Shown in pieces: positions 2,659-37,886 of a stretch of DNA of 64,000 bases. The stretch is taken from NCBI GenBank assembly GCA_035649175.1, contig DASRKB010000102.1, forward strand, positions 4,300-68,299, written 5' to 3'. This DNA comes from Burkholderiales bacterium (GTDB taxonomy: Bacteria; Pseudomonadota; Gammaproteobacteria; Burkholderiales; SG8-39). The position numbers and the translations under genes are program-made. Position 1 is the first letter of the stretch. Each line of letters starts with the position of its first letter. The notes under the pieces were generated by a model that was given only the letters and a program-made list of their open reading frames with translations, did no database searches and was not told the origin of the DNA.

Positions 2659-2678
2659 TAAACCCCTCCTCTTTGGAA

Positions 2679-2684
2679 TACTAT
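2679..2684 (+). promoter_or_regulatory. -10-like hexamer TACTAT, 7 nt upstream of ATG 2692 (possible leaderless transcript)
   Basis: 33-nt divergent intergenic region. No Shine-Dalgarno between hexamer and ATG. Confidence 0.3.
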
Positions 2685-2691
2685 CGCGTCG

Positions 2692-3447
2692 ATGTTGCCA
2701 GCAAACCCGATCCACCTCAACCACAAGGTGCACGTGCTCACCCGGAAGGAGGAGCTCGATGGCATCCGCGTCGGCGGGAAGGTGGTGGTGGTGCTCGACA
2801 TCCTGTTCGCCACGACCACGATGGTGACCGCGCTCGCGCACGGCGCGCGCGAGATCCTGCCGGTGCTGGACGAGGCGGCGGCGCGCGCCCAAGCGAGTCA
2901 GTTTCCCGACAGCAATCCCTGCGTCCTCGCCGGAGAGCTCTATGCCGAGGTGCTGCCGGGGTTCGCGCACCCCGCCCCCCTCTCGCTGCTCGAGCACGGG
3001 GTGGACGGGAAAACGGTGGTGTATTCCACGACCAACGGCACGGTCGCGATGACGCAGGCCGCCGGGGCGGCTCGCGTGTACTGCGGCGCGCTGCTGAATG
3101 CCCGGGCGCTTGCCGCCCACATCGTCCGTCATCATCCCAGCGAAACGGTGCTCGTCGTCTGCTCCGGGTCGGGAAACAACTTCAATTTGGAGGACTTCTA
3201 CGGCGCCGGCTACTTCGTCGAGTGTTTCGCCGCCGAGCTCGGCGAGGCGGCGGATTTCTCGGACGCCGCAAAGGCGGCCCTGCTGCTGCAGCGCCACGCA
3301 AAGGCGCCTGAGGCGCTGCTCGAATGCCGCGTCGGGCGGATGATGGTAGCGAAAGGGTTGCGGCGCGAAGTCGAGTTCGCTTGCCGCAACGACGCGTTCC
3401 CAGTCATTCCCGCCCTGGAGGAAGGCCGGTTGCGGCTGGTGGCCTGA
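2692..3447 (+). CDS. 2-phosphosulfolactate phosphatase (ComB) family protein
   Basis: 251 aa. VVVVLDILFATTTMVTAL resembles the ComB-family D-x-x-R/F-A-T-T-T region. Length fits the family. Confidence 0.7.
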   Translation: MLPANPIHLNHKVHVLTRKEELDGIRVGGKVVVVLDILFATTTMVTALAHGAREILPVLDEAAARAQASQFPDSNPCVLAGELYAEVLPGFAHPAPLSLLEHGVDGKTVVYSTTNGTVAMTQAAGAARVYCGALLNARALAAHIVRHHPSETVLVVCSGSGNNFNLEDFYGAGYFVECFAAELGEAADFSDAAKAALLLQRHAKAPEALLECRVGRMMVAKGLRREVEFACRNDAFPVIPALEEGRLRLVA

Positions 3448-3454
3448 GCGCGCG

Positions 3455-4210
3455 CTAGGCCCGCTCCAGCTCCGCGCTTACGGCGAGGTGGTCGGACAGC
3501 ATGGACCAGGGCTTGCCCCGGTGCACCGTGGAGGCGGCGACCTTGAAGCCGCGCACGTAGATGCGGTCGAGCCGCAGGATCGGCATCACGCTCGGATAGG
3601 TCCGCGCCGCCCGGCCGAAGCGCGCCACGGAAACCTCGGTCATGCCGAGACGCCGCTCGAGGATCGACGATGCGCGGTGCCGCCAGTCGTTGAAGTCGCC
3701 GGCGACGATGATCGGCAAATTTCTCGAAGCCAGCTCTTCCAGGCGGCCGGAGATGGCCTCGAGCTGCCGGTTGCGGCCGCGCTCGTGCAGCGAGAGGTGC
3801 ACGCAAACGAGATGCAGATTGCGCCGCCATCCGGGGACCGCCACCACGCAGTGCAGCAGTCCCCGGCGCTCGAATCGATGATCCGAGACATCCTCGTTCT
3901 CCGAGTGCACGAAGGGGAAGCTCGACAGGATCGCGTTGCCGTGGTGCCCATGGTCGTACACGGCGTTGCGGGCATATACATGCTTCCATCGCTCGCCGGC
4001 GAGGAACTCGTGCTGCGGCTGCGGTGGGCAGGCGGCATAGCGCAGCGCGAAGCGCTGGTTGAGCCCCTGCACCTCCTGGAGGAAGACGAGATGGGGATCG
4101 AGGGCGCCGAGGCCTTCGCGCAGCTCGTGGATCACCATGCGGCGATTGAACTGCGACAACCCCTTGTGCATGTTGAGCGTGACGACGCGCAGCCGCCGGG
4201 TTCCCGCCAT
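3455..4210 (-). CDS. Endonuclease/exonuclease/phosphatase (EEP) family protein
   Basis: 251 aa. LRVVTLNMHKG...HLVFLQEVQG...IIVAGDFNDW...SDHLAV are EEP fold motifs. Starts 4 nt after the nudB stop. Confidence 0.85.
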   Translation of the reverse strand: MAGTRRLRVVTLNMHKGLSQFNRRMVIHELREGLGALDPHLVFLQEVQGLNQRFALRYAACPPQPQHEFLAGERWKHVYARNAVYDHGHHGNAILSSFPFVHSENEDVSDHRFERRGLLHCVVAVPGWRRNLHLVCVHLSLHERGRNRQLEAISGRLEELASRNLPIIVAGDFNDWRHRASSILERRLGMTEVSVARFGRAARTYPSVMPILRLDRIYVRGFKVAASTVHRGKPWSMLSDHLAVSAELERA

Positions 4211-4214
4211 CGAT

Positions 4215-4658
4215 TTAACTTATCACAGCGCGTTCACCGAGCATGACGATGGCGTCCCGATTGGACCACGAGAAGCAGCGCTGCGCGGCTTCCCGCCACG
4301 GCAGCCAGGCGAATGCCAGATGCTCGGAGGGCGCTATGCGCACCGGAGCGCGCGCCGGCAACGCCAGAGTAAAGAGATGCTCGACATTGTGGAGAACGCC
4401 TGGCGGAAAGCGGTGGCGCCATGCAGCGTAAATCTCGAAGCGGCTGGCGACCGGACGGCGCTCGAGCCGGCCCTGCGCGGCACGGATGCCAGTCTCCTCG
4501 AGCACCTCGCGCTCGGCGGCATGCTCGAGCGGCTCGTCGGGCCAATCGAGCGAACCCGTGACCGACTGCCAGTAGCCTGGGTGCGATGCGCGCTCAAGAA
4601 GCAGCACCTCCAGCGCTTCGGTATGCACGACAACCAGGACCGATACCGGATACTTCAC
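4215..4658 (-). CDS. nudB: Dihydroneopterin triphosphate diphosphatase (Nudix hydrolase NudB)
   Basis: ORF 4215..4826 trimmed to GTG 4658 (GTGA overlap with the barstar stop). Nudix box GSLDWPDEPLEHAAEREVLEETGI. About 147 aa. Position downstream of aspS is conserved. Confidence 0.8.
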   Translation of the reverse strand: MKYPVSVLVVVHTEALEVLLLERASHPGYWQSVTGSLDWPDEPLEHAAEREVLEETGIRAAQGRLERRPVASRFEIYAAWRHRFPPGVLHNVEHLFTLALPARAPVRIAPSEHLAFAWLPWREAAQRCFSWSNRDAIVMLGERAVIS

Positions 4659-4984
4659 AGCGGCGGCAGGTCGAGCTCGCCGCCGGGATCGACGAACACC
4701 GCCACGAACGACTCGCCGTTCTCCATCCAGAACTGCGCCACGGAGCGAAGCACGTCGATCAGGATGCCGAGCTCGTCCCCCTTGCGGAAGTTCTTCAGGA
4801 TCAGGCGGTGAGGCGGCGTGCGCCACGAGAGATCGCTCAGGCAGTCCTCAAGCGCATCCCAGTTGCCGCCGAACCAGCCGGGGAACTGCAAGGCGCGGGC
4901 GATGGCCTCCACGGGCTTCGCGCCGAGGTCGATCTGCACGCCTTCGGGCGCATGATCGGTGCGATAAACCCCCGAGACGGTCAT
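4655..4984 (-). CDS. Barstar-family ribonuclease inhibitor
   Basis: 109 aa. FPGWFGGNWDALEDCLSDL matches the barstar FP.YFG.N.DAL.DCL motif. ATGA overlap with the RNase stop. Confidence 0.85.
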   Translation of the reverse strand: MTVSGVYRTDHAPEGVQIDLGAKPVEAIARALQFPGWFGGNWDALEDCLSDLSWRTPPHRLILKNFRKGDELGILIDVLRSVAQFWMENGESFVAVFVDPGGELDLPPL

Positions 4985-5313
4985 CTGCGGATTCGCCTGA
5001 AGGACCGATAGTGGTCCTCGGTATAGTAGTACTCGCCGTCACGCCCGGCGACGATGCGCCGCGCGCCCCGGTCTCGGGCTCCGGGCGTCTTCACCGTGTA
5101 TTCCCGATAGTAGCCACGCACTCGCTTCGGCAGCAGGCCTTCCCGGTTGTAGAACACTCGGCCATCCTGCTTGTAGGGGAAAGGCCCACCGGCCTCGATG
5201 CTCGCCAGCGTCTCCAGCGCTTCAGGTGGGAGGTCGGCGAATCCCCATGCCGCGACACAAGCAAAGGCGAGAAGCGCGGCGAGCGCGCGCCCAAGCGCTT
5301 TGCGCGCGACCAT
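4981..5313 (-). CDS. Secreted guanyl-specific ribonuclease (barnase/RNase Sa/N1-T1 family)
   Basis: ORF 4981..5646 trimmed to ATG 5313 (TAATG overlap with the aspS stop). Signal peptide [26 protein letters not shown]. Motifs LPPEALETL, GGPFPYKQDG, YREYTV, RGARRIV, DHYRSF. Confidence 0.85.
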   Translation of the reverse strand: MVARKALGRALAALLAFACVAAWGFADLPPEALETLASIEAGGPFPYKQDGRVFYNREGLLPKRVRGYYREYTVKTPGARDRGARRIVAGRDGEYYYTEDHYRSFRRIRR

Positions 5314-7070
5314 TACGGCGCCCTGGGCGTCTCCCGCAGGCGCAGGCCCAGCTCGCGCAGCTGCCTCTCGTCGGCCGGACTCGGCGCCCGTACTAGCAGG
5401 TCCTGCGCACGCTGGGTTTTCGGGAAGGCGATCACGTCGCGAATGGACTCCGCGCCGGCCATCATCGCCGCGAGCCGGTCGAGGCCGAAAGCGATGCCGC
5501 CGTGCGGCGGCGCGCCGAACCGGAGGTTGTCGAGGAGGAACCCGAACTTGGCCTGCGCCTCGTCCTCGGAGATCCCAAGTGCCTTGAACACCTTTGCCTG
5601 TACCTCGGCGCGGTGGATGCGCACCGAGCCGCCGCCGAGCTCCCATCCGTTGAGCACCATGTCGTAGCCCTTGGAGAGCGCACGCCCCGGGTCAGATGCG
5701 AGCAGGTCTTCGTGGCCATCCTTCGGCGAGGTAAAGGGATGGTGCATCGCCATCCAGCGCTTCTCCTCCTCGTCCCACTCGAACATCGGGAAGTCGAGCA
5801 CCCAGAGCGGCTGCCAGCCCTTGCGCACCAGGCTCTTGTCATGGCCGATGCGCACGCGCAACGCGCCGAGGGCATCGTTGACCACCTTCGCCCTGTCGGC
5901 GCCGAAGAAGATCAGGTCCCCCGGCTTCGCAGCCGTCCTCTTCAGGACTTCATCGAGCGTTTCCCGGGAAAGAAACTTCACGATCGGGGACTGCAGGCCG
6001 TCGGGGTTGACCTTGATGTAGGCGAGGCCCTTGGCGCCGTAGTTGGCGACGAAGCCGCCATAGTCATCGATCTCCTTTCGGGTAAGCTCGGCGCTCGCCT
6101 TCAGCGCGGCGACCCTGCCGTCGGGCATCTCGGCCGCCTGGCGGAACACCTTGAAGTCGGTGGACTTCATGAGCTCGGTAAGCTCGGTGAGCTCCAGCGC
6201 GATCCGAAGGTCCGGCTTGTCGGTGCCGTAGCGCGCCATCGCCTCCGCGTAGGACAGGCGGGGAAAAGGATCGGGGAGCTCCTCGCCAAGGACATTGCGG
6301 AAAACAGTTCGAATCAGGCCTTCCATCAGGTCTTGGATCTCGCGCTCGCCCAAGAACGAGGTCTCGACGTCGATCTGGGTGAACTCCGGCTGCCGGTCAG
6401 CCCGCAGGTCCTCGTCGCGGAAGCACTTCACGATCTGGTAGTAGCGGTCGAAGCCCGCCACCATCAGGAGCTGCTTGAAGAGCTGGGGTGATTGCGGCAG
6501 GGCGAAAAACTCGCCGGGGTGCACCCGGCTCGGCACCAGGTAGTCGCGCGCGCCTTCCGGCGTGGAGCGGGTCAGCATCGGCGTCTCGATATCGATGAAC
6601 CCGTGCTCGTCGAGATACTGACGCACCGCCATGGCGATCCGGTAGCGCAGCCGCAGGTTCTTCTGCATCGGGGCGCGGCGCAGGTCGATCACGCGATGCT
6701 CCAGGCGCGTGTTCTCGTTGAGGTTCTCCTCGTCGAGCTGGAAGGGCGGCGGCGCCGAGGGATTGAGGACTTGTACCTCCTGCGCGAGCACCTCCACTTC
6801 CCCGGACGCAAGCTCCGCGTTGACCGTGCCTTCCGGGCGCCGGCGCACTTTGCCCGTCACGCGCAAGACGAACTCGGCGCGCACGCGCTCGGCGGCCTGG
6901 AATGCCTGCGCGTGGTCCGGGTCGCAGACCACCTGCGCGAGCCCCTCGCGATCGCGCAAGTCGATGAAGATCACCCCACCGTGGTCGCGGCGCCGGTGCG
7001 CCCACCCGGCCAGCGTCACGACGCGGCCGACGAGCGCCGCGCTGAGCTCCCCGCAATAGTGGGTGCGCAT
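5313..7070 (-). CDS. aspS: Aspartate--tRNA ligase
   Basis: 585 aa. MRTHYCGEL...[48 protein letters not shown]: class IIb synthetase motifs. Confidence 0.97.
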
Positions 7071-7667
7071 CTAGCGGGTGTCGGGCGGCGGGGCGACGCC
7101 CATGGAAATGATGTACTTCAGCGCCTGGTCGACGGTCATGTCGAGCTCGATGACTTCCTTGCGCGGCACGATGGCGAAGTAGCCGCTGGTCGGGTTGGGG
7201 GTAGTGGGCACGTATACGGATACGCAGTCGGGCGGCACGTGCTCGGCGACCCGTCCGCCCGGCGCGCCGGTCAGGAAGGCGATCGTCCAGACGCCCTCGC
7301 GCGGCCACTGTACGAGCAGCGCCTTGCGAAACGCCTGTCCGCTCGAGGAGAACAGCGTGTCCGAGATCTGCTTGACGCTGGAATAGATCGAGTTGACCAC
7401 CGGAATGCGGTGGAGGATGTCGTGCCAGACCTCCACCAGACGAGCGCCGAAGAAGTTCGTGGCAAATATCCCGGTCACGAGAACCACGACGACGGTGAGC
7501 AGCGCGCCCAGGCCGGGGATATGAACGCCGAGCAAGCTCTCGGTTCGGAGCGTGATCGGCAGCAGCAGCAGCGACTGATCCAGCAGGTCGAAGATGACCT
7601 TGAGCACCCAGATCGTGATGACCAGGGGTATCCAGATCAGCAGACCGGTAATGAAGTATTTTTTCAA
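7071..7667 (-). CDS. DUF502 domain-containing membrane protein
   Basis: 198 aa, TTG start. MKKYFITGLLIWIPLVITIWVL... Its stop abuts the aspS start. Confidence 0.8.
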   Translation of the reverse strand: MKKYFITGLLIWIPLVITIWVLKVIFDLLDQSLLLLPITLRTESLLGVHIPGLGALLTVVVVLVTGIFATNFFGARLVEVWHDILHRIPVVNSIYSSVKQISDTLFSSSGQAFRKALLVQWPREGVWTIAFLTGAPGGRVAEHVPPDCVSVYVPTTPNPTSGYFAIVPRKEVIELDMTVDQALKYIISMGVAPPPDTR

Positions 7668-7674
7668 GGTCTAG

Positions 7675-7703
7675 AAAGCAAAAGGCCCGGCATTCGCCGG
7701 GCC
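7675..7703 (-). terminator. Rho-independent terminator after the zinc-ribbon gene
   Basis: ggcccggc(7684..7691)-attc-gccgggcc(7696..7703). Minus strand reads hairpin + TTTTGCTTTCTA. Confidence 0.6.
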
Positions 7704-7722
7704 GGCCGCGCCGGTCGCCCGT

Positions 7723-8010
7723 TCAGTCTGCCGCCGCAGCGCTCTTCGGTTTCGCCTCGGGCTTGGCCTCGGTCTTGGTCTCGCCCTTCGCTTCGGTTTT
7801 TGCTTCGCCCTTCTTCTCGGCCGGCTTGCTGCCCTTGAAGTCGGTCGCATACCAGCCGCTGCCCTTCAACTGAAACCCCGCCGCGCTCAGGAGCTTCTGG
7901 AGCGCCGGCTTTCCACAAGCCGGGCACTCGGCAATGGCGGGGTCCGAGACCTTCTGCAGGAACTCGTCCTGATGGCCGCAGGCGGAGCACCGGTATTCGT
8001 AAATCGGCAT
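7723..8010 (-). CDS. FmdB-family zinc-ribbon protein with Lys/Glu/Ala-rich tail
   Basis: MPIYEYRCSACGH...CPACG (CxxC...CxxC). C-terminal KPAEKKGEAKTEAKGETKTEAKPEAKPK low-complexity tail. Confidence 0.85.
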   Translation of the reverse strand: MPIYEYRCSACGHQDEFLQKVSDPAIAECPACGKPALQKLLSAAGFQLKGSGWYATDFKGSKPAEKKGEAKTEAKGETKTEAKPEAKPKSAAAAD

Positions 8011-23409: not shown

Positions 23410-24252
23410 ATGGAGGAGCTCGATTTCAGCAGGCCGGCAGAGAGGCCGCAGCCGGTCAATCTCGCCGCCGCGCTGAATTTTTTCCGCACCGCCGGTGTGG
23501 CCGAGAACGTGGACCTGGGAACCAACATCTTCGTCGAGGACGAGAAGAGCCGCCTCTTCTCCCGCAGGGCCCGCAAGATGTATCTCCTGATGGAGGGCGA
23601 AGTGAACCTGATTGCGGCGAACAAGCTCATCGCCGTGCTGAAGCCGGGCGAGATCTTTGGCGAGATGGCGGCGATCAGCGACTCTCCACGCGCCGCCACT
23701 GCGGTCGCGAAAACCCCGTGCCGGCTCATCTCGATGGACGAGAAGGGCTTCCGCGCTGCGCTGAAGGCCAAGCCCGATTTCGCGCTCACGCTGCTCGGCA
23801 TGATGATCAATCGCCTGCGCGGCATGCTTGCGCGCGCCAAGGATTCCGGCTCGCTTGGCGAGGCGAAGAAGGAGTCCCGCGTTTTCGACAAGAGACTGCT
23901 CGCGGCGCTCGCCAAGGGCCTCGGGCCGACCAACATCGCCCGATACGAGAAAGGCCGGACCATCATGACCGAAGGTCAGGCCGGCGCCATGATGTACGTC
24001 GTGCAGGAAGGCCGGGTGGCGGTGTCCATCCGGGGCCGCGTGGTGGAGCGCGTGGGCGTCGGCGGGGCGTTCGGAGAAATGGCGCTGGTGGACCAGTCCC
24101 CGCGCGCCGCCACCGCCATTGCCGAAACCGCCAGCATTCTCCTCACCCTGAACCGGGCGGTGTTCCTGCAGCTCGTGAAGACGCAGCCCGAGTTCGGGGT
24201 GGCGCTCCTCGCCGCGACCGCCGAGCGCGTGCGTTTCGTGGCTTCCCGCTGA
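23410..24252 (+). CDS. Tandem cyclic-nucleotide-binding (CAP_ED) domain protein without output domain
   Basis: 280 aa. Two phosphate-binding cassettes: [21 protein letters not shown] and [21 protein letters not shown] (PKA-like FGE...PRAAT). No HTH or enzymatic domain is visible. Confidence 0.85.
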
Positions 24253-25013: not shown

Positions 25014-25598
25014 CTACTTCTTCAGCACCGAATCCGGGAGCTTGTATTCCGGGTAGCGCATGCGGAACGCCTCGAGCATCCTGTCAGCCTCCTCGTGCCG
25101 ACCCAGCCTGCGCAGTTCGGCGATGCGCTCGAGCACCTTCTCCGGCGGCTCCTCAGCGAGCTGCTTCGCAAGCATGCTGGCGGACGGCGCCTCGAGCGCG
25201 CGCCCGGCAGGGGCGGCATCCCGTGCGGCCGGTGCGGCCGGTGGGAGCTCTCGCTTCGGGCGCGCAGCGGCATCCCGGCGCGATTCATCCGCTTGCTTCT
25301 CCTCCCTGCCGAGCTCCTGAGCGGGATGCGGTGCCCGCATGAGCATCGCGGACTCGGGGTCCGGTCGCTCCTCCATTTGCATGTGCCAGGTAACGGCGAC
25401 GGAGAGCATGATGACCGCGGCCGCCGCCAGGGGGAAGTACCAGCGCCGCCGGCCAGCCGGTGGCACGAGCGGCGCGGGAGGCGCATCGGTGGCGCGCCGC
25501 GAGGCGGCGAGGATCGCCTCATCGAGCGCACGCGGCGGCTCTTGCGCGCCGAGCCCGCGGTAGCGGCGCGACACCTGAGGATCGCGCTCATCAGCCAT
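25014..25598 (-). CDS. Putative single-pass anti-sigma factor
   Basis: ORF trimmed to ATG 25598 (8-nt overlap with the sigma gene end). Short cytoplasmic N-terminus, one TM (WYFPLAAAAVIMLSVAVTW), Ala/Pro-rich periplasmic part. Called by position downstream of the ECF sigma gene. Confidence 0.6.
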   Translation of the reverse strand: MADERDPQVSRRYRGLGAQEPPRALDEAILAASRRATDAPPAPLVPPAGRRRWYFPLAAAAVIMLSVAVTWHMQMEERPDPESAMLMRAPHPAQELGREEKQADESRRDAAARPKRELPPAAPAARDAAPAGRALEAPSASMLAKQLAEEPPEKVLERIAELRRLGRHEEADRMLEAFRMRYPEYKLPDSVLKK

Positions 25599-26172
25599 CG
25601 TCAACCGCCTTCCTGAGCTTCGCCACCGCATAGCGTAGGCGGCTCTTCGCCGCCTCCACGGCCATGCCGGTTGCCCCGGCGATCTCCTCGACACTCATGC
25701 CGGCCTCTTCATGCATCAGAAAAGCCTCGCGCTGCGCCGGCGGCAGCGCCTCCAGCGCGCTTGCGAAGCGCTGCAGGTCCTGCCGGGCTTGCACCTGCCG
25801 CTGCGGGTCCGGATTGTTGCCTTCGACCTCCGCGCTGTCCACGTCCACCAGGGAAAGCCCCTTGCGACGCCAGTGGTCGACCAGCCGGTTGTGGGCGATC
25901 GAATAGAGCCAGGTGGTGAAGCGGGCCTTGGGCGCATAGCGCCGGCGCGCCTCGATGACGCGCATCCATACGTCCTGGTATAGCTCCTCCGCCAGGCCGC
26001 GCTCCTTCACGCTGCGCAGCACGAAACGATAAAGGCGGACCCGGTGGCGGCCATAGAGCGCCTCGAAGGCGCGGGCGTCGCCGTCACGATAGGCGAGCAT
26101 CAACTCTTCGTCGGCGCCGTCCACGGCGCGCAGTCTACCGCCACCGGCCAGCGCGGCAAGAATCGCTCCCAC
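25591..26172 (-). CDS. ECF-type RNA polymerase sigma factor (sigma-70 family)
   Basis: EELMLAYRDGDARAFEALYGRHRVRLYRF...WLYSIAHNRLVDHWRRK (region 2) and EEIAGATGMAVEAAKSRLRYA (region 4). The exact start is uncertain. Confidence 0.88.
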   Translation of the reverse strand: MGAILAALAGGGRLRAVDGADEELMLAYRDGDARAFEALYGRHRVRLYRFVLRSVKERGLAEELYQDVWMRVIEARRRYAPKARFTTWLYSIAHNRLVDHWRRKGLSLVDVDSAEVEGNNPDPQRQVQARQDLQRFASALEALPPAQREAFLMHEEAGMSVEEIAGATGMAVEAAKSRLRYAVAKLRKAVDDG

Positions 26173-32952: not shown

Positions 32953-32967
32953 GCGACGCCCCGCCCG

Positions 32968-33009
32968 CTAGTTGAGCTTGTAGGATACGAGCTCGAGATC
33001 GTAGTCCGG
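32968..33009. repeat. 42-bp perfect direct repeat, copy 1
   Basis: ctagttgagcttgtaggatacgagctcgagatcgtagtccgg, identical to 36182..36223. Confidence 0.97.
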
Positions 33010-33171
33010 ACCCCAGGGGTTGCCGCTCAGGGTGCGCAGGCTGGACTTGAACAGGCGCTTGGGCGAGTCGGCGTACCAAAACCTGCCGCGGCGCTGAGTA
33101 TGGAATCCGCCCCGCGAGGCGGTCAGCTGGACATCGATGTCGTCCCAGCGCATGCCGGGCTTCGTGGCCAT
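32968..33171 (-). pseudogene. 67-codon remnant (or stand-alone small ORF) homologous to the extreme C-terminus of the caspase-like protein
   Basis: ...QRRGRFWYADSPKRLFKSSLRTLSGNPWGPDYDLELVSYKLN aligns with ...QRRATFWYAEAAKRLVKSTMRTYSQGGQAPDYDLELVSYKLN of ORF 36182..37849. An in-frame TGA lies 3 codons upstream of its ATG. Confidence 0.55.
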
Positions 33172-33400
33172 GATCCCTTCTCACGAGGGCGGGTACGCCA
33201 CTTCCGTCAGCGGCAGTTCTTCTGGTCTTCTGGTCGCGCCCCCTTGCTCACATGATATGAGGATATTTTCCGCGTGCCTATTCGGTTCCGGATGCGAAAG
33301 CAGGCGCAGCGGCTTCTAGTGGGTACCCTATACCAACGGTGCACAGGGGGCGGGGTGGTACTCTCGCGTCGACCGGGTCGGCGTCGTCCAGGGGGATAGC

Positions 33401-35164
33401 GTGCAGACAAGAACGAAGATCGCAGCCGTAATAATCATTGCGGCAGCCACGGTCTTTTTCGAAACTGTCGATCTTTCTGCATCGCCGCAGTACCGTCTCC
33501 TCGATGCACAGTTCGCCTTGCTGAGAACCTGGGTTCCACGCCCCGCAGCGCGGGAAGTGGTGATAGTCGGCATTGATGAGGAGACCACACGCAGCATCGC
33601 CGAGCCGATTACGCTCTGGCATAGCCACCTCGCCAAGTTCTTCTTCGCCATGGCACAGGCAAGGCCTGCGGTCGTGGGCGTGGACATCGTCCTGCCAGAC
33701 CGCAGCTTCGACGCAGTCGTGCCAGGCATTGACAAGGTGCTGCTTGCAGGATTGCTCGAGGCGCGACGCAGCCATCCGGTGGTGCTTGGTCTCACCGTCG
33801 ACTTCTCAGGAAATCGACGCCCTATACATGCGCCGTTTCTGGCGGTAGCGGGACCGGCCGGGGCCGGGTACGTACTCATGCCGGTCGACCACGACGGACA
33901 CGTCAGGCGCTTCGATGAAAGGCTAGGCGCGAACCGCGAACGAGTACCGACATTGGCAGGGCAGATGGCGCGGCATCTGCAAGTGGAGCCAGGGGCGGGC
34001 CTCATTGATTTTTGGCGCGGCTCGCCCTTCGATTACATTCCGTTTCACCAGCTCGCGCAATGGTCCGATAGCGGAGACCACCGCGCGCTCCAGCAGGCAT
34101 TTCGCGACAAGCCGGTGCTGCTCGGAACCGTATGGAGGTACGAGGATCGAACGCGCGTCCCCACCAAGCTTGCCGCATGGGACAGCGCGGCGCTCGATGT
34201 GCCTGGCGTGGTCCTTCATGCCCAGGCGTTACGCACGATCCTCGGCAACGGTCTGGTGCGGGACGTTCCGCACGGCGTCACCCTCGCGTTGACCGCGGCA
34301 AGCGCGCTGCTTTGGCTTGTCTCAGCCAGCACGTTGGCCGTTCTCGCGGTCTTCATCGTCATGTCAGCGATGCTTCTCGCGGTTTCGACCTGGCTCCTCG
34401 CCAATGGATGGTTCCTGCCGACCGCGGCCCCCGCTCTCGGCGCTGCGCTCGCCCTCGCCGGACGCAATGTCGCGGACACGCTGCAGAAGCTGCGCGAGCG
34501 GCGGCGGCTCCGCAGTTCATTCTCGGGCTATGTCAGCCCGGCGGTCATGGAGGAGATCCTTGCCGGGCGCGTGCAGCCGGACCTCGGCGGCGAGAACCAC
34601 TTCGTATGCATCATGTTCTCGGACATTCGCGGCTATACCACTCGCAGCGAACAGATGGCGCCGCAGCAGGTGATTCGCTTTCTCAACTGTTATTTCGAAG
34701 AGGTCGTGACACTCATCCATGCGCGGGGCGGGAGCGTCGTGAGCTTCATGGGAGACGGCATCATGGCGGTATTCGGTGCGCCGAAACAGCTCGAGAATCC
34801 CTGCCAGAGCGCATTCGACGCCGCGCGCGACATGCTTGAGCATGTTGCCGGACTGAACGAGCAGCTCGAGGCGAAAGCAGCGATAGAGATCGGCGTCGGA
34901 CTCCACGCCGGAGAGGCAGTGATTGGCCACGTCGGGTCTTCCGCCCGTCACGACTATACGGCCATTGGGGACGCAACCAACGTCGCCTCTCGCCTGGAAG
35001 GACTTACCAAGGAAGCCGGCTATTGTATCGTCTTATCGAGAGCGGTAGTCGAGCAACTGCGGGAGCCTGCCGAACTCGAGTTCCTTGGACCCACGGCGAT
35101 CAAGGGCCATACCCCTGTTGAAGTTTTCGGCTATAAGAGCATTAGGGCCCGCGCCGGCATTTGA
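33401..35164 (+). CDS. CHASE2 sensor domain-containing class III adenylate/guanylate cyclase
   Basis: 587 aa, GTG start with GGGGGA upstream. N-terminal TM (IAAVIIIAAATVFF). About 280-aa CHASE2-like ectodomain (VVIVGIDEET...VGVDIVLPD...). 3 TM (residues about 293-350). Cyclase motifs FSDIRGYT, GDGIMAVFGAP, IGDATNVASRLE. Confidence 0.9.
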   Translation: MQTRTKIAAVIIIAAATVFFETVDLSASPQYRLLDAQFALLRTWVPRPAAREVVIVGIDEETTRSIAEPITLWHSHLAKFFFAMAQARPAVVGVDIVLPDRSFDAVVPGIDKVLLAGLLEARRSHPVVLGLTVDFSGNRRPIHAPFLAVAGPAGAGYVLMPVDHDGHVRRFDERLGANRERVPTLAGQMARHLQVEPGAGLIDFWRGSPFDYIPFHQLAQWSDSGDHRALQQAFRDKPVLLGTVWRYEDRTRVPTKLAAWDSAALDVPGVVLHAQALRTILGNGLVRDVPHGVTLALTAASALLWLVSASTLAVLAVFIVMSAMLLAVSTWLLANGWFLPTAAPALGAALALAGRNVADTLQKLRERRRLRSSFSGYVSPAVMEEILAGRVQPDLGGENHFVCIMFSDIRGYTTRSEQMAPQQVIRFLNCYFEEVVTLIHARGGSVVSFMGDGIMAVFGAPKQLENPCQSAFDAARDMLEHVAGLNEQLEAKAAIEIGVGLHAGEAVIGHVGSSARHDYTAIGDATNVASRLEGLTKEAGYCIVLSRAVVEQLREPAELEFLGPTAIKGHTPVEVFGYKSIRARAGI

Positions 35165-35238
35165 TTTTCTGGCGCTACACTGGAGCGGCGCCCATGCTTG
35201 CGCCGTGCTGGTCTTCCACCAAATGGGGAGTGGAGGAA

Positions 35239-36093
35239 GTGACGCTGTCGCTGCCGCCCTTGTGCACCGTTCTGGTTTGGGCATTGACTGTGCTCGCGTT
35301 GCCCGCAATGGCGAGCAGTGTGGCGATCGTGACGGACCTTTCCGGCAAAGCGACCGCCGAAGGCATGAACGTCGCCATTCTTTTTGAGATACGGGAGGAC
35401 GCCCGTGTTGAAGTAACCGACGGGACGCGAATGGTTGCGGTTTATTTCTCGTCTGGTGAGGAATACACCTTCACGGGTCCGGCACAGATCCACTTTCGCC
35501 CCGGTGAGCCGCAAGTATTGAGCGGCCCAAAAGCAGAGAAGCGCTCCAATCCGCTCGCCAGGAGCGGAAGAAACGTCGCGATCAAACCAATCGGCGTCGC
35601 CCAAGCGGGTTTCGTCATGCGCAGTTGGCGCAATACCGCGCGGGTCAAGCTGCTAAGTCCATCCGGCACCCTGACGCTCGAGCATAGCCCCGAATTCCGC
35701 TGGACCGAGGTAGAGTCGGCCCTGAGATACCACTTCGAGCTTACCGACGACACCGGGGAGCCCCTCTACGAAGCCAACGTGGCGGCATCCTCGCTGCGCT
35801 TGCCCGCTTCGTTGCGCTTGCGAGAAGGCGCGCGATACACCTGGCAAGTGTCGACGCGGTTGTCCAACGGACGGCGCTATGTAGGCGCCAGCGATTTCAG
35901 CGTCGCGTCACCCGAGCTTCGTTCGGAGGCGGAAGCTCTGCGGCCCGTTGCCACCGCACCGGTATCCGCGCAAGTCACATTCGCGTTGTGGCTGGAGCAG
36001 ATGGAATTGAAGGACGAAGCGCGCAAGTACTGGAAGGCAGTGGCGAGCGAGCGGCCGCGCGACGAGCGGCTGAAGACGCTCAGTGTGGATTAA
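35239..36093 (+). CDS. Secreted FecR-like / DUF928-like protein (start uncertain: 35161, 35194, 35230 or 35239)
   Basis: Signal peptide MTLSLPPLCTVLVWALTVLALPAMA. The N-half looks FecR-like (VAIVTDLSGKATAEG...VEVTDGTRMVAVYFSSGEEYTF). The C-half resembles DUF928 (SPEFRWTEV..YHFELTDDTGEPLYEA..LREGARYTWQV). Assigned by eye only. Confidence 0.55.
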   Translation: MTLSLPPLCTVLVWALTVLALPAMASSVAIVTDLSGKATAEGMNVAILFEIREDARVEVTDGTRMVAVYFSSGEEYTFTGPAQIHFRPGEPQVLSGPKAEKRSNPLARSGRNVAIKPIGVAQAGFVMRSWRNTARVKLLSPSGTLTLEHSPEFRWTEVESALRYHFELTDDTGEPLYEANVAASSLRLPASLRLREGARYTWQVSTRLSNGRRYVGASDFSVASPELRSEAEALRPVATAPVSAQVTFALWLEQMELKDEARKYWKAVASERPRDERLKTLSVD

Positions 36094-36181
36094 GGAGTTT
36101 CGGCCGTTGAACTGCAGAGGAAGATCGACGCGCCGGGCAGGATGATTTGAATCAGGCCCCCCTCGCACATAAGCGCGCGCT

Positions 36182-36223
36182 CTAGTTGAGCTTGTAGGAT
36201 ACGAGCTCGAGATCGTAGTCCGG
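36182..36223. repeat. 42-bp perfect direct repeat, copy 2
   Basis: Identical to 32968..33009. Encodes PDYDLELVSYKLN* of the caspase-like gene. Confidence 0.97.
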
Positions 36224-37849
36224 CGCCTGCCCGCCCTGCGAATAGGTGCGCATCGTGGACTTCACCAGCCGCTTCGCGGCCTCAGCGTACCAGAAGGTTG
36301 CACGGCGTTGCACGAAGTCGCTGGGGCGGGTCGGGCTACCGACAGTGAAGTTGATCTCGACCTTCACCGCATCGAAAGTCCCAGCAGGCGTCGTAACGTT
36401 TTCCTGGCCGACAACGCGCGCGGTGTACGCACACGTCGGCTGGCGGAAACAGAAATAGTCGTTGCGCACATGGATGTCGTCCCACTGGGCAGCCGGCCCT
36501 ACCGCGTCGAGGATGTGCAAATAGGGCGAAAACATCCACACGTCCTGGAGGATGTTCAGGTCGGCCCCGGCGCCGTACGCGCGCTGAACCGAGCCGAAGA
36601 GGTTGTCCTCGTCGAGGATGCCGTCCTTCGAGACACCGACCACGTGCACGTCGACGGTACGGCTTTCGCGCGTAAGTATGTCCTTGTACGCGTATTGCCA
36701 GCGGTCGCCGGCCTTGGGAAAGCGCGGGTCGAGCACTTCGGCGGCGACCGGCGTAGGCGCTACGGAAGCCATCTGGGTCGATTGCTGCAGCGGATCGTTT
36801 CGATCCCCGAGCGGATCGCCGGAGGGTGCCGGCAGCTCGGGGGCCGGTGCCGCGGCCACAGGCAACGCGCCGGGCGGCTTGGCGCCTAGCGCTTCGGCGC
36901 GCCGGCGCATCTCTTCCTCCAGCTCGGCGCGCTGCTTGGCCAGCATTTCGCGGATCGTCTCCTGCATCTTGCGCTGCTCGGCGGCGAGCTTCTGCTGCTC
37001 GAGGCGCACCGCGTCGGCTACCGCCCTCTGCACCGCCGCCTGCTGCACCGCTTGGGCGCTACCAGGATCCGGGGCGACGAAGAAGAAGTCGCCTCGGAGC
37101 GAGCTGGATTCCCACGGAATCTGGCGCTCGCGCGTCTCCCGGCCCACGCCGATGCGCACGTCCTTGAAAAGCTGCTCGATGGGCAGGCCGGGACGCCCCA
37201 TGTTGGCGAGCAGGTGCTTGGTGTAGATGCCGTTGTCGCCGTCGCCGTCGGCGGCCACGGAACCCGGGGCGGTGGCGAAGGCAACCAGTGTCCCCGAGGG
37301 CGCGTCCATCTGCGCCAGACCCTGCTGCGCGGAGCGGAAGCTGCGCGCGAAGGGGTTGTTGCGGCAGGCGTCCAGGATGACGAGGTTGAGCGAGTTCTTG
37401 ACGCTGTCGAGCTTGGCGAGCACGGTGTTCGCGTCGACCGACTCGTCCTCGACCTCGTTCTCGCGCTGGATGTCCGCTCCTACCGGGATGAGGTAGTTAC
37501 GCCCACGGATCTGCATGCCGTGGCCGGCGAAGTAAAAAAGCGCCACGCCCCCTTCGGCCAGCTCGTCGCCCCACTCGCGGATCGCCGCGCGCATGGTCGA
37601 GCGCTTGGCGTTCTCCAGCAGGCGCACGCGGAAGCCGGTTTGCTCGAGCGCCTGCGCCATCGCGCGCGCGTCGTTCACCGGGTTGCGCAGCGGCGCGTCG
37701 CTGTAGGCGCCGTTACCAATCACCAGCGCCGTGCGCCTCTCACCGTCGGGCGCGTTCTTCGGCTCGATGCGCAGCGAGCGCTCCTGCGCAACCGCCGCCG
37801 CGCACCAGAGCACCAGGAGCATGCCCCACCCCAGCAACCGCGATCGCAT
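36182..37849 (-). CDS. Secreted caspase-like cysteine protease (peptidase C14) with coiled-coil and unassigned C-terminal domain
   Basis: 555 aa. Signal peptide MRSRLLGWGMLLVLWCAAAVAQE. ALVIGNGAYS, FYFAGHGMQ (His110, codon 37522..37520), LVILDACRNNP (Cys162, codon 37366..37364). Residues about 255-320 are Q/A/E/R-rich coiled coil. Confidence 0.88.
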   Translation of the reverse strand: MRSRLLGWGMLLVLWCAAAVAQERSLRIEPKNAPDGERRTALVIGNGAYSDAPLRNPVNDARAMAQALEQTGFRVRLLENAKRSTMRAAIREWGDELAEGGVALFYFAGHGMQIRGRNYLIPVGADIQRENEVEDESVDANTVLAKLDSVKNSLNLVILDACRNNPFARSFRSAQQGLAQMDAPSGTLVAFATAPGSVAADGDGDNGIYTKHLLANMGRPGLPIEQLFKDVRIGVGRETRERQIPWESSSLRGDFFFVAPDPGSAQAVQQAAVQRAVADAVRLEQQKLAAEQRKMQETIREMLAKQRAELEEEMRRRAEALGAKPPGALPVAAAPAPELPAPSGDPLGDRNDPLQQSTQMASVAPTPVAAEVLDPRFPKAGDRWQYAYKDILTRESRTVDVHVVGVSKDGILDEDNLFGSVQRAYGAGADLNILQDVWMFSPYLHILDAVGPAAQWDDIHVRNDYFCFRQPTCAYTARVVGQENVTTPAGTFDAVKVEINFTVGSPTRPSDFVQRRATFWYAEAAKRLVKSTMRTYSQGGQAPDYDLELVSYKLN

Positions 37850-37858
37850 TCTGTCGAA

Positions 37859-37879
37859 AGTTTACCCGCCTTTTAGAAT
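37859..37879. promoter_or_regulatory. Back-to-back -10-like hexamers in the 37-nt caspase/GGT divergent region
   Basis: + strand: TAGAAT (37874..37879), 7 nt before ATG 37887. - strand: TAAACT (rc of 37859..37864), 9 nt before ATG 37849. No SD on either side. Confidence 0.3.
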
Positions 37880-37886
37880 AGCGACG

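Follow-up and report, generated by a model that had tools for sequence, protein, structure and literature searches.

A diverged betaproteobacterial mtx-type locus brings together a secreted MtxA-like protein, a CHASE2-gated nucleotide cyclase and an exported caspase-like protease

The locus described here, part of a 64,000-nucleotide window of Burkholderiales DNA, is a distant and strongly diverged betaproteobacterial version of the mtx-type module that had previously gone unrecognised. The mtx cluster was already known but uncharacterised, and the window locus is a new form of it. Tentatively, we favour reading it as a module for protein sensing in the periplasm: the protease may act on or dock at the MtxA-like protein and so switch cyclase output. 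The three open reading frames proposed in the initial annotation were all recovered, with the following features:

32968..33171, minus strand: remnant of a second C14-DUF3108 gene, 67 codons, C-terminal end only (47% identity to caspase residues 486-555, E 2e-18)
32968..33009: left copy of a 42-bp repeat, last 13 codons and stop of the remnant
33172..33400: intergenic region 5' of the cyclase gene, locally AT-richer
33401..35164, plus strand: CHASE2-gated class III nucleotide cyclase, 587 aa (TM1, periplasmic CHASE2, three TM, cytoplasmic cyclase)
33446..34339, plus strand: CHASE2 ectodomain, residues 16-313 (Pfam CHASE2, E 1.7e-25)
34601..35128, plus strand: cyclase catalytic domain, residues 401-576 (Pfam Guanylate_cyc, E 1.3e-23)
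35239..36093, plus strand: secreted MtxA-family protein (ORF3), 284 aa (AF2, Foldseek, profile match to 4Z29, hhalign)
35602..35622, plus strand: linker motif Q122-A-G-F-V-M-R128 of the MtxA-like protein, candidate protease cleavage or docking site
36182..37849, minus strand: exported C14 (orthocaspase/paracaspase-like) protease, 555 aa (signal peptide, caspase domain, coiled coil, Pro/Ala linker, DUF3108/YmcC-like β-barrel)
37082..37738, minus strand: Peptidase_C14 domain, residues 38-256 (Pfam, E 4e-41)
36185..36703, minus strand: C-terminal DUF3108/YmcC-like open β-barrel, residues ~383-555 (Pfam DUF3108_like, AF2, Foldseek)
36182..36223: 42-bp repeat, right copy, covering the final 13 codons and stop of the caspase gene

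Results

A remote MtxA homolog beside a CHASE2-gated cyclase

ORF3 consists of a signal peptide ending AMA/SS, which agrees with the secretion first proposed, an N-terminal β domain (27-103), a flexible linker (104-150), an FN3/Ig-like domain (150-222) and a helical TPR-like tail (225-283). The gene might alternatively begin at an in-frame ATG at 35194, which leaves its start ambiguous. The AF2 model (pLDDT 77.9) matched 4z29_B in Foldseek with a TM of 0.52, and 4Z29 was the sole significant match when the ORF3 profile was compared with PDB sequences (E 4.3e-7). The hhalign comparison of the ORF3 and MtxA families covered the full length (98.1%, E 8.6e-14, 275 columns). Judged by these sequence and model comparisons, ORF3 is a remote MtxA homolog. 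The Pfam models MtxA_N, MtxA_IG-like and MtxA_C fail to recognise the window protein.

The N-terminal half had initially been described as FecR-like and the C-terminal half as DUF928-like, and neither identity was retained. The FecR HMM matched neither the window protein nor any of 20 family members or four true MtxA proteins. DUF928 reached 16.9 bits, short of its cut-off of 26, with matches in 3/20 members, and the landmarks that had pointed to it are core motifs of the FN3/Ig-like sandwich.

Within the linker, M127 and R128 reach a conservation of 90% or more among 125 diverse members. The QAGFVMR motif aligns with 'AQRYTTVRR' of MtxA, directly before the first residue visible in the trypsin-treated MtxA crystal, and trypsin cleaves MtxA at this homologous linker (PMC4439547). 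Both remote families share the linker Arg motif, which the fusions have also kept.

Hydropathy analysis of the cyclase revealed a TM segment at residues 5-28 and a TM block at ~289-352 flanking CHASE2, which places the sensor in the periplasm and the catalytic domain in the cytoplasm. Together with the Pfam matches, this bears out the order of TM, CHASE2-like ectodomain, three TM and class III cyclase that had been suggested. The nearest solved structure is Cya2 (2W01, E 1e-26). Alignments to Cya2 and to the mtx-operon cyclases identified the metal-binding residues D408 and D452 and the transition-state residues N527 and R531. The residue pair that specifies the substrate, Ser448/Thr520, is non-canonical, the Ser being kept in 15/17 family members. 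The canonical Lys is absent from the first specificity position of the window enzyme, whose activity and product are predictions from sequence.

A protease with a predicted preference for basic residues

The signal peptide of the protease (ending AVA/QE), its C14 core, the coiled coil and the Pro/Ala linker were all found as first described. The catalytic dyad is intact, with His110 (37520-37522) in FAGHG and Cys162 (37364-37366) in LDACR, and is retained in 23 of the 24 full-length partner C14 genes. The closest solved structure for the caspase domain is MALT1, whose D365/D462/E500 align with the acidic S1 residues D60, D160 and D201. Because the S1 pocket is acidic as in MALT1, the window protease is predicted to cleave after Arg or Lys.

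The C-terminal region, which the initial annotation could not place, is a DUF3108/YmcC-like β-barrel. It scored 26.9 bits with Pfam DUF3108_like (cut-off 27), and homologs carry PF11306/PF21347. The AF2 model of the barrel (pLDDT 89.1) matched 3fzx (E 2e-6), 4fvs and YmcC 2in5 in Foldseek and, more weakly, LolA and MucB/RseB. Cys467 and Cys473 of the barrel are conserved in 15/15 and 15/16 rows.

Genomic setting

As the initial annotation had noted, the cyclase and ORF3 genes are less GC-rich than their surroundings (GC 0.62; GC3 0.72-0.73 versus 0.87-0.94 for flanking genes). In close relatives the site is occupied by an MshE-type ATPase gene and the module is absent; the module is strain-variable and compositionally distinct. 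A Shine-Dalgarno-like AGGGGGA precedes the GTG start of the cyclase gene at 33401, and a consensus promoter scan of the intergenic region performed no better than on shuffled sequence. Within the window the caspase gene is convergent to the cyclase and MtxA-like genes and is therefore not co-transcribed with them.

The 42-bp direct repeat reported earlier is perfect and present in two copies. It was rejected as a mobile-element end or boundary and does not mark the block off as a mobile unit, since the left copy is the end of a paralogous caspase remnant. This 67-codon remnant is probably a pseudogene, and a full caspase gene lies in the upstream divergent position in relatives L095, L081 and L077. 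Just outside the repeat, identity drops to ~55-60%. The caspase termini of relatives share at most 26/42 nucleotides with it, so its identity stems from recent gene conversion or recombination rather than from selection.

Linkage and fusions among relatives

A census was made of 29 non-redundant relatives with at least 2.5 kb of flank on both sides. A CHASE2-cyclase gene is paired with the MtxA-like gene in 29/29 loci, and a caspase-fold protease of the C14 or TPR-CHAT type, again exported, is found in 24/29, a linkage far beyond chance. It persists while gene order, strand and protease type vary. A signal peptide is present in each of the partner proteases sampled, whose accessory domains are highly variable. 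Since five loci have no nearby protease, the core sensor cannot depend on proteolysis. A Crp regulator is encoded within 12/29 modules; the window's module contains no Crp gene.

In all five canonical mtxA operons sampled, MtxA is followed by a CHASE2-cyclase and an exported TPR-CHAT or WD40-C14 protein, and the triad also occurs in Alphaproteobacteria and Planctomycetia. Pairwise comparison of the CHASE2 domains of the window and mtx families detected no similarity, the two being too diverged. Clean in-frame fusions of two kinds were found. One kind joins an MtxA-like part to TPR-CHAT, with the junction exactly where stand-alone CHAT proteins have their mature N-terminus, and the other has the order CHASE2-cyclase–TM–MtxA-like. 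Census, fusions and partner signal peptides thus uphold the core idea of three functionally linked genes with extracytoplasmic sensory or catalytic parts feeding a nucleotide cyclase. The precedent first invoked, a cyanobacterial linkage, gives way to the mtx cluster of magnetotactic bacteria (PMC4439547, PMC5088516).

Discussion

In the mechanism that we propose, the obligate core would be the secreted MtxA-family protein and the CHASE2-gated class III cyclase, the former most likely serving the CHASE2 ectodomain as its partner in the periplasm, either as a co-receptor or as a tethered ligand. The exported Arg/Lys-type protease would cut, or be docked by, the MtxA-like protein, likeliest at its exposed, conserved basic linker (…VMR128…). 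The real input may be supplied by the variable accessory domain of the protease, a DUF3108/YmcC/LolA-class β-barrel in the window and a TPR array or WD40 propeller elsewhere. Cleavage or binding would then switch cyclase output, and Crp-type or other proteins that bind cNMP would read the result. The analyses show the domain identities, export signals and topology, together with the conserved linkage, the fusions and the MtxA homology. We infer the direction from protease to receptor, with proteolysis sensed and turned into cNMP, and likewise that the MtxA-like protein physically binds CHASE2, where it is cleaved and which nucleotide is made. The CHASE2 cyclases of S. meliloti, which answer a protein signal and act through the Crp-like Clr, set a precedent for the model (PMC13001267). 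Against it speak the lack of a phenotype on mtxA deletion in M. gryphiswaldense (PMC4439547), the 5/29 loci with no protease nearby, the convergent caspase gene and missing Crp gene of the module described here, the divergence of the CHASE2 domains between the two families and the absence of the canonical Lys from the cyclase.

The protease could instead be the output. The MtxA-like/CHASE2 pair would sense an unrelated periplasmic cue, and cNMP, through a Crp-type regulator, would control an exported protease acting on external substrates (nutrition, matrix remodelling, competition). The Crp genes inside 12/29 modules, the absence of the protease from 5/29, the separate convergent transcription unit of the window caspase and the variability of the accessory domains, as expected of effectors with different targets, are consistent with such an order. 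We nevertheless consider it unlikely, since the MtxA-like–TPR-CHAT fusions join the protease physically to the sensor partner, which is unexpected for a transcriptionally controlled effector, and the protease has been kept beside the sensor pair through many rearrangements.

The position of the MtxA-like part in that fusion, exactly where CHAT proteins have their signal peptide/pro-region, also suggests that it might inhibit, chaperone or anchor the protease in the periplasm, as a pro-domain in trans. CHASE2 would then respond to peptides that the protease frees from foreign or envelope proteins and not to MtxA itself. The Ig-like and TPR-like protein-binding folds of the C-terminal half of MtxA (PMC4439547; Foldseek) and the protein-type signal of the S. 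meliloti CHASE2 cyclases (PMC13001267) fit this arrangement. It appears quite unlikely to us, because the MtxA-like/CHASE2-cyclase pairing is universal even without a nearby protease and the CHASE2-cyclase–MtxA-like fusion likewise points to a direct relationship with the receptor.

An anti-phage or programmed-death system of the Pycsar/CBASS type, or a CHAT-based defence, is highly improbable. The cyclase matches PADLOC PycC models (best E 6.9e-25), but the 85.9 bits obtained hardly differ from its generic Pfam cyclase score of 84 bits. The caspase matches the generic PADLOC 'caspase' model, while the MtxA-like and TPR-CHAT proteins have no PADLOC match. The non-canonical Ser/Thr pair of the cyclase and the strain-variable, compositionally distinct module would suit a defence role; against this, the nearby cNMP readers are Crp transcription factors and not TM or TIR effectors, and all proteases of the module are exported. 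Known defence caspases and CHAT proteases work in the cytoplasm.

Fortuitous adjacency of a functionally unrelated caspase, which its opposite strand and the signs of rearrangement (remnant, repeat) might suggest, can be practically dismissed given the fusions and a caspase-fold protease beside the pair in 24/29 relatives and 5/5 canonical mtxA operons despite changes of order, strand and protease family.

Under the preferred sensing model, the MtxA-like protein and protease would supply a candidate answer, amenable to experiment, to the question of what CHASE2 receptors detect.

Comparison with known systems

The closest counterpart is the mtx cluster (MtxA/MGR_0208, PDB 4Z29; PMC4439547, PMC5088516). 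It shares the four-part secreted protein (signal peptide, N-terminal β domain, protease-accessible linker, Ig-like domain plus TPR-like tail) and a CHASE2 class III cyclase gene adjoining the mtxA-type gene. Its third gene is on record as encoding a Sel1/TPR protein; our analysis shows that this protein is exported and has a CHAT caspase-fold protease at its C-terminal end. The window protease is instead C14 with a DUF3108-like domain, its gene is convergent whereas the mtx protease gene is co-directional, and the cyclase has Ser where the mtx enzyme has Lys. The locus also lacks the MBL/cNMP-binding gene and comes from a non-magnetotactic Burkholderiales MAG. Deletion of mtxA in M. gryphiswaldense gave no phenotype (PMC4439547).

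Sinorhizobium meliloti CyaD1/CyaD2/CyaK–Clr–NsrA (PMC13001267, PMC5498481) likewise combines CHASE2 class III cyclases, an extracytoplasmic protein signal and a Crp-family regulator, the Crp-like Clr acting downstream (PMC13001267), and Crp genes recur inside the 12/29 modules of the window family. However, perception there involves the outer-membrane β-barrel NsrA, an MtxA-like partner or caspase-fold protease is unreported, and the window module is without a Crp gene. In CHASE2 histidine-kinase operons (Burkholderia 'BiofilmReg' operon, P. aeruginosa PA4035/4036 type; PMC5192318) a receptor is likewise encoded next to a dedicated accessory protein that is secreted into the periplasm. That partner is a LysM-FecR protein with a true FecR domain, the output is a histidine kinase and there is no protease, whereas the window partner gives no FecR signal.

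The regulated periplasmic proteolysis of envelope-stress signalling (RseB/MucB–RseA/MucA–DegS/AlgW) resembles the module only in how it works: in the periplasm, a lipid-sensing β-barrel of the LolA/RseB class, a class weakly matched by the window caspase barrel, controls site-specific cleavage relayed across the inner membrane. The protease there is a serine rather than a caspase-fold cysteine enzyme, the outcome is sigma factor release rather than cNMP synthesis, and the substrates are non-homologous. Finally, caspase–CHASE2 fusions and EACC2–caspase–CHASE2 proteins (PMC3501461, PMC2853523, PMC8195603) reflect an evolutionary association of the caspase fold with CHASE2; in them the caspase is cytoplasmic and forms the CHASE2 output, whereas the window protease is separate, exported and on the sensor's side of the membrane.

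An exported caspase beside a CHASE2-gated cyclase

The three open reading frames of the module, as delimited by the initial annotation, are all present, and a third protein of 284 aa (ORF3) separates the cyclase from the protease:

33401..35164, + strand: cyclase, 587 aa; TM helix, CHASE2, hydrophobic block (compatible with three TM helices), class III cyclase
35239..36093, + strand: MtxA-like protein (ORF3), 284 aa; alternative in-frame start ATG at 35194
36182..37849, − strand: caspase, 555 aa; signal peptide, C14 domain, coiled coil, Pro/Ala linker, C-terminal domain

The caspase matched PF00656 over the full model (1-233, residues 38-256) with 141.7 bits against a cut-off of 21.4 (E 4e-41). 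Both members of the C14 dyad that had been read from the sequence, His110 in FAGHG and Cys162 in LDACR, are retained and aligned to H415 and C464 of the paracaspase MALT1, whose solved structure is the nearest to the protease domain (E 1e-11). The signal peptide that had been proposed was recovered as a Sec-type peptide ending after AVA (AVA-QE). Residues D60, D160 and D201 aligned with D365, D462 and E500 of MALT1, which form the S1 pocket of that Arg-specific enzyme. An acidic S1 pocket confers Arg/Lys specificity on ortho-, meta- and paracaspases, whereas caspases cleave after Asp. From this match of acidic residues, we predict that the window's enzyme cuts after Arg or Lys, like ortho-, meta- and paracaspases.

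The C-terminal domain, left unplaced in the initial annotation, scored 26.9 bits against PF21347 (DUF3108_like; cut-off 27). Among its few homologs, several have precomputed PF11306/PF21347 (DUF3108) calls. Its AlphaFold (AF2) model (pLDDT 89.1) matched 3FZX (E 2e-6), 4FVS and YmcC (2IN5) in Foldseek, followed more weakly by LolA and MucB/RseB; by predicted fold, the domain is a DUF3108/YmcC-like β-barrel. Its conserved C467 and C473 would fit a disulfide in an exported protein.

For the cyclase, the CHASE2 and class III assignments both held (PF05226, 90.5 bits against 26.3, E 1.7e-25; PF00211, 84 bits, E 1.3e-23). Hydropathy analysis located the TM helix at residues 5-28 and the hydrophobic block at 289-352, a predicted topology that puts the sensor in the periplasm and the catalytic domain in the cytoplasm. 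Alignment to Cya2 revealed that the metal-binding D408 and D452 and the transition-state N527 and R531 are retained, and that the substrate-specifying pair is Ser448/Thr520. Canonical pairs are Lys/Asp or Lys/Thr for ATP, and Glu followed by Cys, Ser or Gly for GTP. No canonical pair was found in this cyclase, Ser448 being neither Lys (ATP) nor Glu (GTP), and 15 of 17 family members have Ser at this first position.

A remote MtxA homolog by profile and predicted fold

ORF3 is predicted to be secreted, with a signal peptide under either start codon. Its AlphaFold model (pLDDT 77.9) comprises the following parts:

N-terminus: signal peptide
27-103: N-terminal β domain
104-150: low-confidence linker
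150-222: FN3/Ig-like sandwich
225-283: four-helix tail

This four-part layout is that of MtxA, a secreted protein of 313 aa (PMC4439547). The Foldseek list for the ORF3 model consisted mostly of generic FN3 tandem matches, and 4z29, at rank 27, was picked out via the literature. Chain 4z29_B, the C-terminal half of MtxA, matched with probability 1.0 and a target-normalised TM of 0.52 over 157 columns (rmsd 4.8 Å) spanning the Ig-like domain and the helical tail; among the top 50 matches listed, it alone aligned over more than about 120 columns at low rmsd.

Profile comparisons pointed the same way. A profile of close ORF3 relatives (A1) retrieved nothing from PDB sequences even at E ≤ 10, and one built from 60 diverse family representatives (A3) retrieved MtxA alone, nearly end-to-end (E 4.3e-7). 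In hhalign, the ORF3-family alignment matched 30 true MtxA proteins at 98.1% (E 8.6e-14, 275 columns). The Pfam models MtxA_N (DUF7354), MtxA_IG-like and MtxA_C gave no match at E ≤ 1 in ORF3 or 20 relatives, against 83-143 bits per domain in true MtxA proteins. Taken with the structural model, these alignments identify ORF3 as an MtxA homolog lying outside Pfam's MtxA models, in a family of 2,519 clusters (50% identity) that match its profile at E ≤ 0.001.

The earlier reading of ORF3 as FecR-like in its N-half and DUF928-like in its C-half did not survive. FecR (PF04773) had no match in ORF3, in any of 20 family members at E ≤ 1, or in any of four true MtxA proteins at E ≤ 0.1; one UniRef name labels an MtxA homolog 'FecR protein domain-containing', a label that our FecR search did not reproduce. 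DUF928 (PF06051) scored 16.9 bits, below its cut-off of 26; the 3/20 members that matched were all sub-threshold, and the likeness is confined to the FN3/Ig-like sandwich. The family also includes four giants of 3,113-4,489 aa (P0156, P0164, P0241 and P0275) with 11-31 repeats of the MtxA Ig-like domain. The repeat regions of P0156, the only giant scanned, score as fn3, Big_10 and DUF928 (5.7e-13), which explains the DUF928 impression.

Linkage of the three gene families

To follow the neighbourhood of the ORF3 family, used as bait, 106 loci from genomes and metagenomes were collected and their domains mapped by tblastn; de-duplication left 98 loci (97 fetched plus the window). The titled genome records (L002-L023) are all uncultured Betaproteobacteria, except two bins labelled Streptomyces.

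Table. Gene families found at census loci, by extent of flanking sequence.
At least 2.5 kb on both sides (n = 29): CHASE2-cyclase 29; caspase-fold protease 24 (16 C14, 12 TPR-CHAT); Crp 12
At least 6 kb on both sides (n = 14): CHASE2-cyclase 14; caspase-fold protease 12; Crp 4

By a rough estimate, even at ten caspase-fold genes per 4-Mb genome, less than 5% of random genes would have one closer than 8 kb. The census revealed linkage far above chance, for both the cyclase (29/29) and the protease (24/29). Order, strand and copy number differ between loci, with linkage kept throughout: C14 genes lie upstream on the same strand, upstream divergent, downstream convergent, or duplicated, and TPR-CHAT genes lie mostly downstream (at L025, L029 and L102 they are upstream), those of L025 and L040 being on the opposite strand. 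Every partner protease examined carries a signal peptide, and 23 of 24 full-length C14 partners retain the catalytic motifs.

Individual loci hold further genes. Between the TPR-CHAT and MtxA-like genes of L025 lies a two-partner secretion pair (2289-7893; a 1267-aa TPS exoprotein and a ShlB/POTRA transporter). At locus L002 (3872-8014), two exported caspases lie in tandem but differ in their tails, one being C14–FGE-sulfatase and the other C14–PDZ–FGE-sulfatase; the 207-aa ORF between them corresponds to the MtxA-like C-terminal helical tail only.

The same arrangement was found around true MtxA. The published mtx cluster comprises mtxA together with a Sel1/TPR gene and a gene for an adenylate/guanylate cyclase (PMC5088516), and a conserved gene combining CHASE2 and adenylate cyclase comes after mtxA (PMC4439547). 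In Magnetospirillum sp. UT-4, Ca. Terasakiella magnetica and a third contig, the order is MtxA, CHASE2-cyclase, TPR-CHAT (CHAT E 1e-74 to 1e-79), and in two Planctomycetia MAGs it is MtxA, CHASE2-cyclase, WD40–Peptidase_C14; the proteases of all five canonical operons have signal peptides. In the window, likewise, the three genes are adjacent and all periplasm-facing parts have predicted export. The literature searched did not note the protease nature of the mtx TPR gene, nor did it describe caspase/CHAT, CHASE2-cyclase and MtxA/DUF928 proteins as a system.

The cyclases of the canonical mtx operons have the ordinary adenylate-cyclase pair Lys/Thr. Between the window and mtx-operon cyclases, BLASTP gave no pairwise match for the CHASE2 domains, and the catalytic domains alone aligned (34% identity). 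Two canonical operons end with a cytoplasmic protein of 757-759 aa (L111, 15783-18062; L112, 15801-18074) with a metallo-β-lactamase or Apyc1-like fold and a cNMP-binding domain, a candidate cNMP-regulated or cNMP-degrading enzyme. In the operons of the Planctomycetia MAGs, the WD40-caspase gene is followed by the gene for an exported 555-597-aa protein with no Pfam match (L109, 12341-14008; L113, 15966-17759).

Gene fusions and a conserved basic linker

The MtxA-like protein and TPR-CHAT are encoded in a single frame in the family representative P0137 and in two MAGs, L004 and L009, that are independent of each other. At the junction, the MtxA-like C-terminus is joined to …PPRGIHDILALLDQY…, the sequence with which mature stand-alone CHAT proteins begin; the MtxA-like part has thus neatly taken the place of the CHAT signal peptide. 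Another representative, P0199, reads CHASE2–cyclase–TM helix–MtxA-like ectodomain, an order that is topologically coherent. All these fusions speak for a scheme in which the three proteins would work close to one another on the periplasmic face of the membrane, and they lend indirect support to a possible physical and functional interaction among the three.

Within the low-confidence linker of ORF3, M127–R128 is at least 90% conserved among 125 diverse members. The motif aligned with AQRYTTVRR of MtxA, found in 118 of 120 MtxA proteins, and is retained in 4 of 5 fusions. The flexible linker of MtxA is cut by trypsin, and the crystal of the trypsin-treated protein begins a few residues past AQRYTTVRR (PMC4439547); by experiment, then, this homologous segment can be reached by a protease cutting after basic residues. 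Because the motif is conserved and its MtxA counterpart trypsin-accessible, we infer that the MtxA-like linker is a candidate cleavage or docking site for an Arg/Lys-type protease.

History of the locus

The perfect 42-bp repeat (32968-33009 and 36182-36223) is real. The left copy, which had been read as framing the block, falls at the end of a decayed caspase paralog and marks no element boundary:

32968..33171, − strand: caspase remnant, 67-codon ORF; 47% identity with the final 70 caspase residues

This ORF is the remnant of a second C14-DUF3108 gene; three census loci (L095, L081, L077) have an intact caspase gene at the same upstream-divergent position. Past the perfect 42 bp, the two copies are only about 55-60% identical at the DNA level, and the caspase's terminal peptide varies among relatives, which have no more than 26/42 nt in common (hit-anchored extraction of termini). 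Given this drop and variability, the tract reflects a recent gene conversion or a recombination junction. A mobile element was rejected, the block having no integrase or transposase and the left copy being a paralog's end, as was selection for the identity, the terminal peptide not being conserved in relatives.

The lower GC content noted initially was borne out, with GC3 of 0.72-0.73 in the cyclase and MtxA-like genes against 0.87-0.94 in flanking genes; the two halves of the caspase have 0.82 and 0.89. Three close relatives with near-identical genomes (γ-glutamyltranspeptidase, GGT, at least 90% identical) have the same gene order around the site, TPP enzyme through aminopeptidase, and lack the module (window 32953-37886); their slot between ADH and GGT is filled by a single MshEN/T2SSE (MshE-type) ATPase gene. 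At this site, then, the module (4.9 kb) is a replacement that varies between strains, probably gained by horizontal transfer.

Only 37 bp separate the start codons of the caspase (37849, minus) and γ-glutamyltranspeptidase (37887, plus), which means that each of the two promoters must reach into coding sequence. A promoter and terminator scan performed no better than on shuffled sequence. Elsewhere in the window, an ECF sigma factor gene (25591-26172, −) overlaps by ~100 bp a 226-aa ORF (25014-25694, −) with no Pfam match. The pair is kept in close relatives, and the ORF is possibly the anti-sigma factor of the adjoining sigma.

Proposed mechanism and alternatives

For this module, the analysis establishes the protein identities, export, topology, conserved linkage, fusions and MtxA homology, and on that basis a signalling chain can be proposed. 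We are most confident that the MtxA-like protein would be a dedicated periplasmic partner of the CHASE2 ectodomain, because of their obligate pairing, the fusion, and the analogy to the FecR-type partners of CHASE2 kinases (PMC5192318). With less confidence, the protease would act on, or be docked by, the MtxA-like protein at its basic linker. Third, the variable accessory domain of the protease may provide the input, being a DUF3108/YmcC-class barrel here and TPR, WD40 or PDZ elsewhere. Least confidently, the changed cyclase activity would be read by Crp-type or other cNMP-binding proteins. We place the chain as a whole just short of an even chance. A more specific version, in which MtxA-family proteins are protein ligands or co-receptors for a broad class of CHASE2 receptors, exported caspase-fold proteases gate those receptors by cutting the conserved Arg linker of MtxA, and the Lys→Ser change in the cyclase alters the nucleotide in the window's lineage, is rather doubtful.

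A 280-aa protein with two cNMP-binding domains (Pfam E 7e-36) and no DNA-binding domain is encoded 10 kb upstream of the cyclase (23410-24252, +). The window locus does not contain the Crp gene of its relatives, and it is possible that this protein reads the cyclase product.

Several observations weigh against the proposed chain: ΔmtxA had no phenotype (PMC4439547), a nearby protease is absent in 5/29 loci, and the window's caspase forms a separate, convergent transcription unit. The protease might instead be the output, under cNMP/Crp control, which we regard as unlikely. It is also quite unlikely that the MtxA-like protein inhibits or anchors the protease, with CHASE2 sensing released peptides.

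A defence or death system appears very improbable. Pycsar/CBASS-type defence combines a cytosolic cyclase with a cNMP-binding TM or TIR effector, whereas the cyclase here is membrane-bound behind CHASE2 and the nearby cNMP-binding proteins are Crp transcription factors; PADLOC matches were generic, and the partners had none. Mere chance adjacency of the caspase and the cyclase pair is barely credible.

If the more specific version, with gating by cleavage of the Arg linker, is true, the module would be a bacterial periplasmic 'protease-activated receptor' converting extracellular proteolysis into a cyclic-nucleotide signal. As read here, the module would also link bacterial caspase homologs to extracytoplasmic second-messenger signalling rather than cell death.

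Comparison with known systems

CHASE2 was described in 2003 and, to our knowledge, has since then been a sensor domain without a known ligand. The module offers concrete candidates for its binding partner and a cleavage site, making the old question of its signal directly testable. The CHASE2 cyclases of S. meliloti that work with Clr answer protein signals and act via Crp-type regulators, but neither an MtxA-like nor a caspase component is reported for that pathway (PMC13001267).

Among known systems, the mtx cluster of magnetotactic bacteria comes closest; it is itself functionally uncharacterised, and its MtxA has a crystal structure but no function (PMC4439547). The window differs from it in several respects: its MtxA homolog lies outside the Pfam models, its protease is C14-DUF3108 rather than TPR-CHAT, its cyclase has Ser, and its host is not magnetotactic. 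What we judge more interesting than the locus alone is that MtxA-like proteins, CHASE2-cyclases and exported caspase-fold proteases together form a cross-phylum module. Hundreds of relatives and the classical mtx cluster form this one module in Betaproteobacteria, Alphaproteobacteria and Planctomycetia, and its spread over these three groups therefore makes the 'magnetotaxis' label misleading.
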